A stretch of 63,127 bases of DNA, filler included, from Collodictyon triciliatum (taxonomy: Eukaryota): the NCBI GenBank assembly GCA_043381765.1. It is 45 parts of 45 records of this genome, joined end to end, with 100 filler letters (N's around TTAATTAATTAA, not from the genome) between each part and the next. Parts side by side here need not be neighbours in the genome. Positions count along the whole stretch, not along the records: positions 14,114 to 15,423 come from JBHJMP010011470.1; 44 more parts are not named here. The stretch is one strand, 5' to 3'. Shown piece after piece: positions 14,115 to 15,423 of this stretch. Each line of letters opens with the position of its first letter. Position 1 is the first letter of the stretch. The position numbers and the translations under genes are program-made. The notes beneath the pieces are model-generated. The model saw nothing but the letters and a program-made list of their open reading frames with translations, ran no database searches and had not been told where the DNA came from.

Positions 14115-15423
14115 AAAGTTGGGAAAAAGCCAATGCTTGAAAAAGACGATAACAAGTATGGACGAGCAATGTCTTACTATTTCCAAAGTGTTGAAAGAGA
14201 ATGTCTAATTGTATTTGAAAATGCATTAAGACAAAAAAATAGACAGCTGGACTTGGGAATGTACGACGGTGGTGCTGTTCGTAAAATTGACAACGAAAAA
14301 GAATTTCCCCAGGAAATACTAGATTATTGTCAGGAAACTATTTTTCAAGAAACCGGTTATCAGGTTGTCATTAAACAAAAATCAATGGAGAGCCCGTTTG
14401 ACTTTGAAAAGATTGACAAACAGGAGGTACTCTATAAAAGTCTTGGCATTGAAGAATTTGAAAAAAATCATTTTAGAGTCGGGGACAAATTCTATAGAAT
14501 CATTGGTGCAGATAAACAGGAATTTGAGCATGTTAGCAAAGAATGCTATTTTGAAGAATTTAATTTAACCAATGCTCCCAAATTCACAAATCTTTTGTGC
14601 AAGTACGGCAAAAGAAAATATGAAAAATTTGATTTTGTGCCTTACATGGATACTAGGAATTATACCTACTATAATTTGTTTACAGGGTTTGCCTTTGAAA
14701 AATTATTTGCCGAAAAAGTTACTGACTTTGAAAATTATCATGAATATCTCAAACATATCCATGATACGCATTATCAAACAACGATGGAAGAGGAATTTAT
14801 AAAATCAAAACATTACCATCAAATATTCAATCTGTTGTGCAACAAAAAGCAAGATGCATATATTTACTTTTTGCAATACATGGCGCACATCCTTTATAAC
14901 CCGCACCAGAAAATTAAGAAGATGATTATCTTGACGAATAAGAAAGGCGGCACAGGCAAATCAAGTTTCTTGAAATTGCATTTTGGAGACAAACTTCTAG
15001 GAACACAGTATTGGCGTGCACCCTGCAATTTTGAAGAGGTGTTTGGAAATCGCAATGCAATACTTGATGGATGCCTTGCACTTATTTGCGAGGAGGCAGA
15101 ATTTCAAAACGCTAAAAAACTCCAAGGAGAAATTAAGGACTTTGTGGACCGAAAATATACCAATCTCAGAAAAATGTGTATTGATTCTAAAAAAAAGCAA
15201 TGTTATGCCAATACATTTTTATGCACAAACAAAAATATTGGTGTGAAATTTGAAAAAGATAACATGCGCCGATTCTGTGTGATTGAATGTTCTGAGTCAC
15301 GTCTCACAAAACAAGATGAAGATCAACTTGCAGCAGAAACTGATGATGAAGATTTTAATAGAAAGTTTTTGTTGTTATTACTTAACAAATACAATCCAAC
15401 TTTTGATTTCAACAAAATGCCAA
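14115..15423 (+). CDS. Virus-like replication protein: C-terminus of a PolA-like (TVpol) domain fused to an SF3/D5-like helicase; open at both ends
   Basis: Intronless. MSYYFQSVERECL..LGMYDGGAV; YNLFTGF; Walker A GGTGKSS; Walker B LICEEA; motif C LCTN; RRF arginine finger. Confidence 0.8.

Follow-up and report, generated by a model that had tools for sequence, protein, structure and literature searches.

Introduction

Virophages and Polinton-like viruses (PLVs) carry a replication protein in which a family-A-like (PolA-like) polymerase domain, TV-Pol or TVpol, is fused to a superfamily 3 helicase (SF3 or S3H). As described by Yutin (2013), the PolA(TVpol)-S3H fusion is found in Sputnik V13, OLV25 and YSLV1; in a 2025 paper on the endogenous PLVs of cryptophytes it is a replicase described as widespread or dominant, and two 2026 preprints portray it as a common and frequently swapped replication module. 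Here we analyse a 63,127-nucleotide stretch of joined contigs (the window) from the genome assembly of the eukaryote Collodictyon triciliatum (GCA_043381765.1), in which the contig at positions 14114-15423 (JBHJMP010011470.1) encodes a 436-residue protein fragment of this family, P0001. We consider it highly probable that this contig holds an inner piece of a replication gene, and that the gene belongs to a small eukaryotic element of double-stranded DNA (dsDNA), of the virophage or PLV kind, whether integrated or free.

The virophage replication proteins (Sputnik V13, Organic Lake virophage OLV25, YSLV1, Zamilon and Qinghai Lake virophage) have the same domain order as the family to which P0001 belongs, TV-Pol followed by a D5-like SF3 helicase, and a similar size of ~780-840 amino acids (aa). 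The named virophage proteins match the predicted structure of the nearest relative of P0001 over their full length (E 2e-26 to 1.6e-31), but with 15-20% identity in these structural alignments; the window holds only the central 436 residues of such a protein. For the PLV replicases (PgVV, PLV-YSL1, PLV-RED1 and those of endogenous cryptophyte PLVs) the same fusion is described as widespread and at times the leading replicase, with copies integrated in protist genomes among those reported; finding a lone, short copy in the fragmented assembly of a eukaryote agrees with this picture. PLV groups are defined by capsid genes and, as no capsid module is linked to the present contig, we assign it to no PLV group.

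The TV-Pol domain itself was defined by a thumb, a beta-hairpin with an invariant Arg, a palm resembling the RNA recognition motif (RRM) with two conserved Asp residues, and fingers with an RxxxK motif (Iyer, Abhiman & Aravind, 2008). The same work describes the joining of TV-Pol to a D5-like helicase and places CCPol, from the staphylococcal cassette chromosome SCCmec, in the TV-Pol group. CCPol is a bacterial stand-alone polymerase that needs a small partner, MP, and adjoins a different helicase.

Results

The open frame is the central part of a longer protein

The window consists of 46 separate contigs of ~1.3 kb each, sorted by decreasing size and joined by spacers of the form N44-TTAATTAATTAA-N44. 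The feature under study is exactly one contig, to which the window contigs on either side are physically unlinked. The contig and its open frame are as follows.

14114-15423, no strand: whole contig, 1310 bases between spacers and no flanking DNA (from the map of N runs and the sequence)
14115-15422, + strand: open frame P0001, 436 codons, truncated at both ends, the middle of a TV-Pol/SF3-helicase replication protein of ~800 aa

The initial annotation of this stretch had described an unbroken, intron-free open reading frame (ORF) of 1.3 kb, and the frame beginning at 14115 is indeed open over the full contig: it has no stop in 436 codons and runs off both contig ends, while the remaining five frames contain between 11 and 51 stops. 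When the bases of the contig were shuffled 2000 times, the longest frame of a shuffle averaged 77 codons and never passed 194, and the length of the real frame is therefore no chance product of AT-rich DNA. What does not stand is the idea of a complete gene. The ATG at 14133 is not a start, as the six residues upstream of it still align with relatives; with the frame open at both ends, the contig must be an internal fragment. Nor does an open frame of full length set this contig apart, for those at 42237-43538 and 39432-40733 are equally open throughout.

The missing parts can be gauged from relatives. In an exhaustive HMMER search against 1.84 billion cluster representatives, P0001 had 2529 relatives at E≤0.001, 220 at E≤1e-10 and nine at E≤1e-30. 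These nine are 762-810 aa long and each matches in one single stretch, from query residues 3-14 to 435-436 and from their own residues ~190-220 to ~611-649. The best, P0002 (801 aa), is 51% identical over its residues 206-644 (E 3e-133), and P0003 (787 aa) aligns through its residues 205-635. The longer proteins of a 90%-identity collection added P0156 (797 aa, 45% identical) and nothing closer, so that the best relatives overall are 45-51% identical to P0001. Since relatives of ~800 aa align from about residue 205 to about residue 645, the contig encodes the central ~55% of the protein, and the ~205 N-terminal and ~160 C-terminal residues absent from it should exist in the source genome. The nearest three relatives come from contigs of 6.3-7.0 kb, whose sources bear the labels ncbi, jgi or lgn, and are named at most 'hypothetical protein'. 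A word-indexed homologue search at similar lengths returned nothing at E≤0.001, a single-sequence search of P0001 against PDB sequences gave no match, and a scan with NCBIfam placed it in no family.

For an account of conservation we aligned P0001 with 97 of 150 listed relatives (alignment A1, 98 rows). These were picked by eye as those whose match reaches the N-terminal part of the query; the 53 rows left out were short or confined to the helicase. P0001 keeps 35 of the 45 columns within the fragment that are conserved at 75% or more, including every column conserved at 96% or more (E27, D51, G52, K89, P263, G279, G281, K282, G296, E327, N372, R385 and R386). At several of the ten other columns, among them the I-H ahead of the Asp, where P0001 has M-Y, its closest relatives depart in a similar way. 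With at most 51% identity to anything in a library drawn from ~15 billion predicted proteins, P0001 adds a divergent branch to the TV-Pol/S3H family; the architecture and distribution of the family have been described before, and a 1.3-kb fragment opens no new question by itself.

In the family, a domain of the PolA fold precedes the helicase

The 5' part of the contig corresponds to the end of the polymerase domain.

14115-14390, + strand: C-terminal ~92 residues of the PolA-like TV-Pol domain, comprising its last helix and palm strands (alignment A1)
14172-14201, + strand: SYYFQSVERE, the family's LQTEER helix, with Q24 (conserved 88%) and E27 (99%)
14253-14273, + strand: LGMYDGG, the family's IHDGG strand-turn, with D51 and G52 invariant in 97 of 97 relatives

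Both strings had been quoted in the initial annotation, which also named SF3 Walker A/B/C motifs, and all of these are located in this contig. D51 of LGMYDGG is the second catalytic (metal-binding) Asp of the TV-Pol palm, which we take to be the PolA motif C. The contig begins too late to include the thumb, the Arg hairpin, the first Asp motif or the RxxxK fingers, and among the conserved A1 columns outside the fragment 21 of 22 are N-terminal. In the numbering of P0002 the sharply conserved positions of the N-terminal domain as a whole are G75-R76, D102-x-D104-x-x-N107, R134, R149-x-x-x-K153, E230 and D254-G255. The columns of the GR hairpin, the DxD, R149xxxK153 and D254-G255 are conserved at 86-100% in the 97 relatives (G75-R76 97-100%, D102 95%, D104 100%, R149 86%, K153 100%), and the N-terminal domain of the relatives matches the list of TV-Pol features given by Iyer et al. 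(2008).

In 19 full-architecture relatives Pfam had no match that passed its cut-offs within the first 300 residues; a twentieth scanned relative, P0069, whose match begins at query residue 80 and takes in the linker and the helicase, carries PriCT_2. The fold is more informative. Because a full-length model of P0002 retrieved only helicase-type matches among the PDB rows listed, we modelled P0095, a naturally truncated relative of 486 residues that ends just after Walker A. Its AlphaFold model (predicted local distance difference test, pLDDT, 90.8) had 91 Foldseek matches in the PDB at E≤0.001, of which the best 50 are all family-A DNA polymerases. They include Klenow (5.3e-5), M. smegmatis Pol1, Bst, T7, Taq, phage G20c, Pol theta and the apicoplast polymerase, with E values of 5e-5 to 5e-4 and ~290-365 columns each among the rows listed. 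The N-terminal part thus has the PolA-fold match that the initial annotation had set as a test of its reading, with the fold shown on the family and not on the window residues alone: residues 1-92 of P0001 align to the end of the PolA-like domain. An archaeo-eukaryotic primase (AEP) was also considered as the N-terminal domain and was rejected, as neither P0001 nor the 19 full-architecture relatives has an AEP or Prim-Pol match in Pfam and the fold is PolA-like.

We infer a polymerase-helicase fusion on the contig from relatives that align over the whole fragment; the tail of the putative polymerase and the helicase share one open frame in P0001, and the relatives carry both domains in one protein.

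The linker and an SF3 helicase with intact motifs

Downstream of the polymerase tail the frame continues as follows.

14391-14858, + strand: central alpha/beta linker domain, residues ~93-248 (~300-450 in the P0002 model, pLDDT mostly >85)
14859-15338, + strand: SF3 (D5/NrS-1/VapE-like) helicase ATPase core (Pfam, PHROG and the family profile)
14928-14963, + strand: Walker A, ILTNKKGGTGKS, with G279, G281 and K282; G and K invariant in A1
15075-15101, + strand: Walker B, LALICEEAE, with E327 conserved 99%
15216-15236, + strand: SF3 motif C, FLCTNKN, with N372 conserved 96%
15258-15275, + strand: arginine-finger region, DNMRRF, with R385 and R386 each conserved 98%

The linker has conserved F-x-P-Y and YNLFxGF motifs (14628-14690) and is covered by the structural alignment to the C-terminal region of NrS-1. 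The C-terminal half of P0001 is a helicase of the D5/NrS-1/VapE type. All four SF3 catalytic motifs (GGTGKS, EE, TN and RR) are intact and lie in columns conserved at 96% or more, and P0001 matches DUF5906 (3.8e-10, aa 276-386, score 40.9 against a cut-off of 27.6) and VapE-like_dom (1.7e-7, aa 249-408, score 31.4 against a cut-off of 25) in Pfam, as well as PHROG 1156, 'DNA primase' (1.2e-11). The A1 profile matches the C-terminal helicase of the phage NrS-1 primase-polymerase (6k9c) at 2.4e-39 and the staphylococcal island protein SaPI PriRep1 at 4.4e-11. Foldseek with the AlphaFold model of P0002 (built on A1, mean pLDDT 90.9) places NrS-1, African swine fever virus (ASFV) PrimPol, mpox E5, vaccinia D5 and the SaPI5 primase-helicase among the PDB matches listed. 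In this group, represented by NrS-1 (6k9c, 6k9e, 6lrb), poxvirus D5/E5, ASFV PrimPol and SaPI5 PriRep1, the helicase core and the domain preceding it match the window family (fold matches of 2e-12 and weaker, beside the profile match given above), but the N-terminal domain is an AEP, whereas the window family has a PolA-like domain instead.

The relatives continue beyond the helicase, past the end of the contig, and their last ~160 residues give weak ETS-like (winged-helix) profile matches (E 0.05-0.8), which hints at a DNA-binding tail.

From these parts a function can be proposed. The complete protein, of ~800 residues as judged from its relatives, would consist of a TV-Pol domain, the linker, the SF3 helicase and the C-terminal tail. 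The N-terminal domain, a minimal family-A-like polymerase, is predicted to prime, and perhaps extend, DNA; the D5/NrS-1-type SF3 domain would by homology be a ring-shaped ATPase helicase that unwinds the dsDNA of the element with ATP; and the tail would probably bind DNA. The proposed helicase mechanism rests on the solved relatives NrS-1 and D5/E5. The priming role of TV-Pol is, in the account of Iyer et al. (2008), a prediction from domain displacement, and it is supported, through one distant member, by the primase-polymerase activity of CCPol, given by Bebel (2020) as the only TV-Pol to have been characterised biochemically.

Fold and feature searches point to virophages and Polinton-like viruses

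Against the predicted viral structures of BFVD, the best matches of the P0002 model span ~790-870 columns. The top two are unnamed entries, A0A6G6XMC6 (3.5e-40) and F2Y0M9 (5.1e-39); next comes the 'putative DNA helicase/primase/polymerase' of Qinghai Lake virophage (1.6e-31), and the 'DNA replication protein' of Zamilon virophage stands at rank 7 (2.1e-26). Giant-virus and phage proteins score more weakly than these top rows. In the ESM Atlas, the clusters nearest to P0001 are DUF5906 proteins labelled Viruses, most commonly Preplasmiviricota (scores 0.97-0.94), with the phylum of a cluster known for only 2-12 members. These results support the reading of P0001 as a TVpol-S3H protein, and the identification made in the initial annotation is right at the level of the family, where the SF3 motifs are intact, the PolA fold is present and the virophage replication proteins match in structure over their full length.

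The same comparison bears on a source among the giant viruses (Nucleocytoviricota), that is, a gene from such a virus or from a giant endogenous viral region in place of a small virophage or PLV element, which we regard as improbable. Some proteins of giant viruses do match most of the P0002 model, among them one of 1275 aa (1.3e-27) and one of Pyramimonas orientalis virus (1.8e-17), and those of Hyperionvirus, Satyrvirus and Catovirus follow at ~1e-15; the initial annotation had also pointed to TVpol-S3H proteins in some nucleocytoplasmic large DNA viruses. The four best BFVD matches, however, are 700-840 aa long and the only named one among them is that of Qinghai Lake virophage, the nearest feature clusters are those labelled Preplasmiviricota, the 762-810 aa of the nine closest relatives is the size of virophage and PLV replicases, and no giant-virus hallmark appears among the Pfam-scanned ORFs of the window.

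An origin in bacteria, as a bacteriophage, plasmid or bacterial contaminant of the assembly, is extremely improbable. It would draw on the first descriptions of TV-Pol and of D5-like helicases, which came largely from bacterial mobile elements and phages (Iyer et al., 2008), and on the matches of P0001 to PHROG 1156 and to 72 phage records. Within a set of 50,697 phage records, though, even the best matches, to Pseudomonas phage primases, are only ~26% identical (at most ~27%) and cover residues 166-413, the helicase, alone; there is no NCBIfam match; and no close relative came up when 185,579 bacterial and archaeal species, each represented by one genome, were scanned by pattern, a search that sees close relatives only: 55 stretches matched and none was confirmed. 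The top fold and feature matches are to proteins of eukaryotic viruses, and the C-terminus of six of the ten nearest relatives is a K-[KR]-Q-[KR] tail that looks like a signal for nuclear import. Best hits among bacteriophages or bacteria had been named at the outset as the finding that would speak against a virophage or PLV element, and the phage matches, at 26% and in the helicase only, are not of that kind: the nearest clusters are Preplasmiviricota and the best full-length fold matches are virophage proteins.

Several points nevertheless weigh against assignment to a virophage or PLV element. The contig has no neighbours, and no capsid, packaging ATPase, integrase, terminal repeat or host junction is visible. 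When 154 family proteins were compared with the window by tblastn, all 152 alignments fell inside this contig and none on the other 45, and Pfam found no viral hallmark domain in the 94 other ORFs of at least 90 aa on those contigs (no double jelly-roll capsid, penton, FtsK/A32-type packaging ATPase, integrase or TnpB/Fanzor-type domain). Only one catalytic motif of TV-Pol is present on the contig. The viral nature of the closest relatives follows from fold and feature searches and is not read from annotation, and some giant-virus proteins match the P0002 model (BFVD ranks 6, 13 and 16-18). TV-Pol proteins are also reported from bacteria, phages and a plastid (Iyer et al., 2008), and the TV-Pol/S3H fusion is, in the account of Bebel (2020), without a biochemical test to date. 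That the P0001 gene sits in a capsid-encoding element is something we infer. The initial annotation had taken the gene, together with a mimivirus-type Fanzor, as a hint of exposure to giant viruses; among the 95 ORFs of at least 90 aa in the window Pfam recognised no domain of TnpB/OrfB type at E≤0.001, a scan that an intron-split gene could escape.

Composition and contig ends

The P0001 ORF has a GC content of 0.335, within the lower quarter of the values for the window contigs (median 0.371), and a GC content at third codon positions (GC3) of 0.323, as compared with 0.318 for the ORF of a probable host gene (Ephrin_rec_like). This composition is compatible with an integrated copy and with an AT-rich virus alike. 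By a crude flag, ~30 of the 46 contigs have microsatellite ends, and that at 14114-15423 is unique coding sequence at both ends, which could reflect low depth or the presence of several diverged copies.

The near-equality of P0001 and host GC3 might be taken to suggest a decaying endogenous relic or a host-captured copy, no longer mobile, of which only this piece of the gene survives. The shortness and isolation of the contig and the lack of any other element gene in the window would suit such a relic, as would the literature in which endogenous PLVs are presented as common in protist genomes. Yet we think this very improbable. The frame runs through 436 codons free of stops and frameshifts and keeps all the catalytic columns, and a recent copy, or one still under selection, therefore fits better than an old relic. 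The likeness in composition is weak evidence. Small eukaryotic viruses, too, are often AT-rich.

If the element of virophage or PLV type is integrated, the host would be marked as a carrier of such elements; the literature discusses them as a heritable form of defence against giant viruses and as a driving force of genome change among protists.

Basic tails in the nearest relatives

The C-terminal K-[KR]-Q-[KR] motif mentioned above lies within the last ~eight residues of P0002, P0156, P0003, P0005, P0006 and P0010, in a part of the protein that is not on the window contig. Of 137 full-length relatives, 8 have a looser pattern of the K-[KR]-x-[KR] type among their final 20 residues, compared with a background of 3% in random stretches of that length. 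A quick maximum-likelihood tree with 60 rows makes P0001 sister to P0002 (Shimodaira-Hasegawa-like approximate likelihood ratio test, SH-aLRT, 99) and puts it in a 12-row clade (SH-aLRT 100). Every tree row with a basic tail, seven in all, lies in this clade, and these are thus seven of its 11 other members. We take the tail to resemble a classical nuclear import signal, and it would fit elements that replicate in the eukaryotic nucleus. One may then imagine that Polinton-like elements of a lineage not sequenced before reside in the host genome and replicate in the nucleus, with the tail as their import signal and with an assembly collapsed by several diverged copies, so that the contig breaks in unique coding sequence and not at microsatellites; we offer this as a tentative idea and regard it, on balance, as doubtful.

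Other contents of the window

Scans of the whole window for Rfam families and for tRNAs gave no match in either case. In the ORFs other than P0001, Pfam found only host-like or retroelement domains (pieces of LINE endonuclease and reverse transcriptase, Ephrin_rec_like, EF-hand and a split anoctamin). The remaining features are listed here.

42237-43538, + strand: fully open contig, 434 codons, at least nine Ephrin_rec_like cysteine-rich repeats (Pfam 5.8e-68)
39432-40733, + strand: fully open contig, 434 codons, between two microsatellites
28619-28888, + strand, and 28892-29182, + strand: C-terminal part of an anoctamin in two frames, as adjacent ORFs (E 1.6e-6 and 4.7e-4)
2402-2725, - strand: LINE-type non-LTR fragment
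31786-32310, + strand: LINE-type non-LTR fragment
45776-46339, + strand: LINE-type non-LTR fragment
47426-47743, + strand: LINE-type non-LTR fragment
1419-2471, - strand: LINE-type by eye only, no Pfam match
6416-6958, - strand: LINE-type by eye only, no Pfam match
9883-11193: contig with an internal gap of 151 N
38026-39329: entire contig a CAGTCT-type hexanucleotide array

The product of the first of these is probably a host surface protein, and its nearest feature clusters in the ESM Atlas are labelled Eukaryota, with Fornicata or Haptophyta for a few members, a weak lead to the host group; that of the second is hydrophobic and resembles a membrane protein, with no Pfam match. Anoctamins are calcium-activated chloride channels, and if a host gene carried a short intron or had suffered a frameshift, a match split over two frames, as at 28619-29182, would be expected. 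The genome had been called intron-dense, of which the window gives only a glimpse, with the split anoctamin match as one example. The four LINE-type fragments recognised by Pfam have endonuclease, reverse transcriptase and zf-RVT domains, and the GC3 of the LINE-type fragments (0.51-0.56) is well above that of the other ORFs in the window. The ~30 contigs with repetitive ends finish in microsatellites or in homopolymer-like repeats, and the hexanucleotide array reads as (QS)n, (LS/NP)n and similar repeats in all frames.

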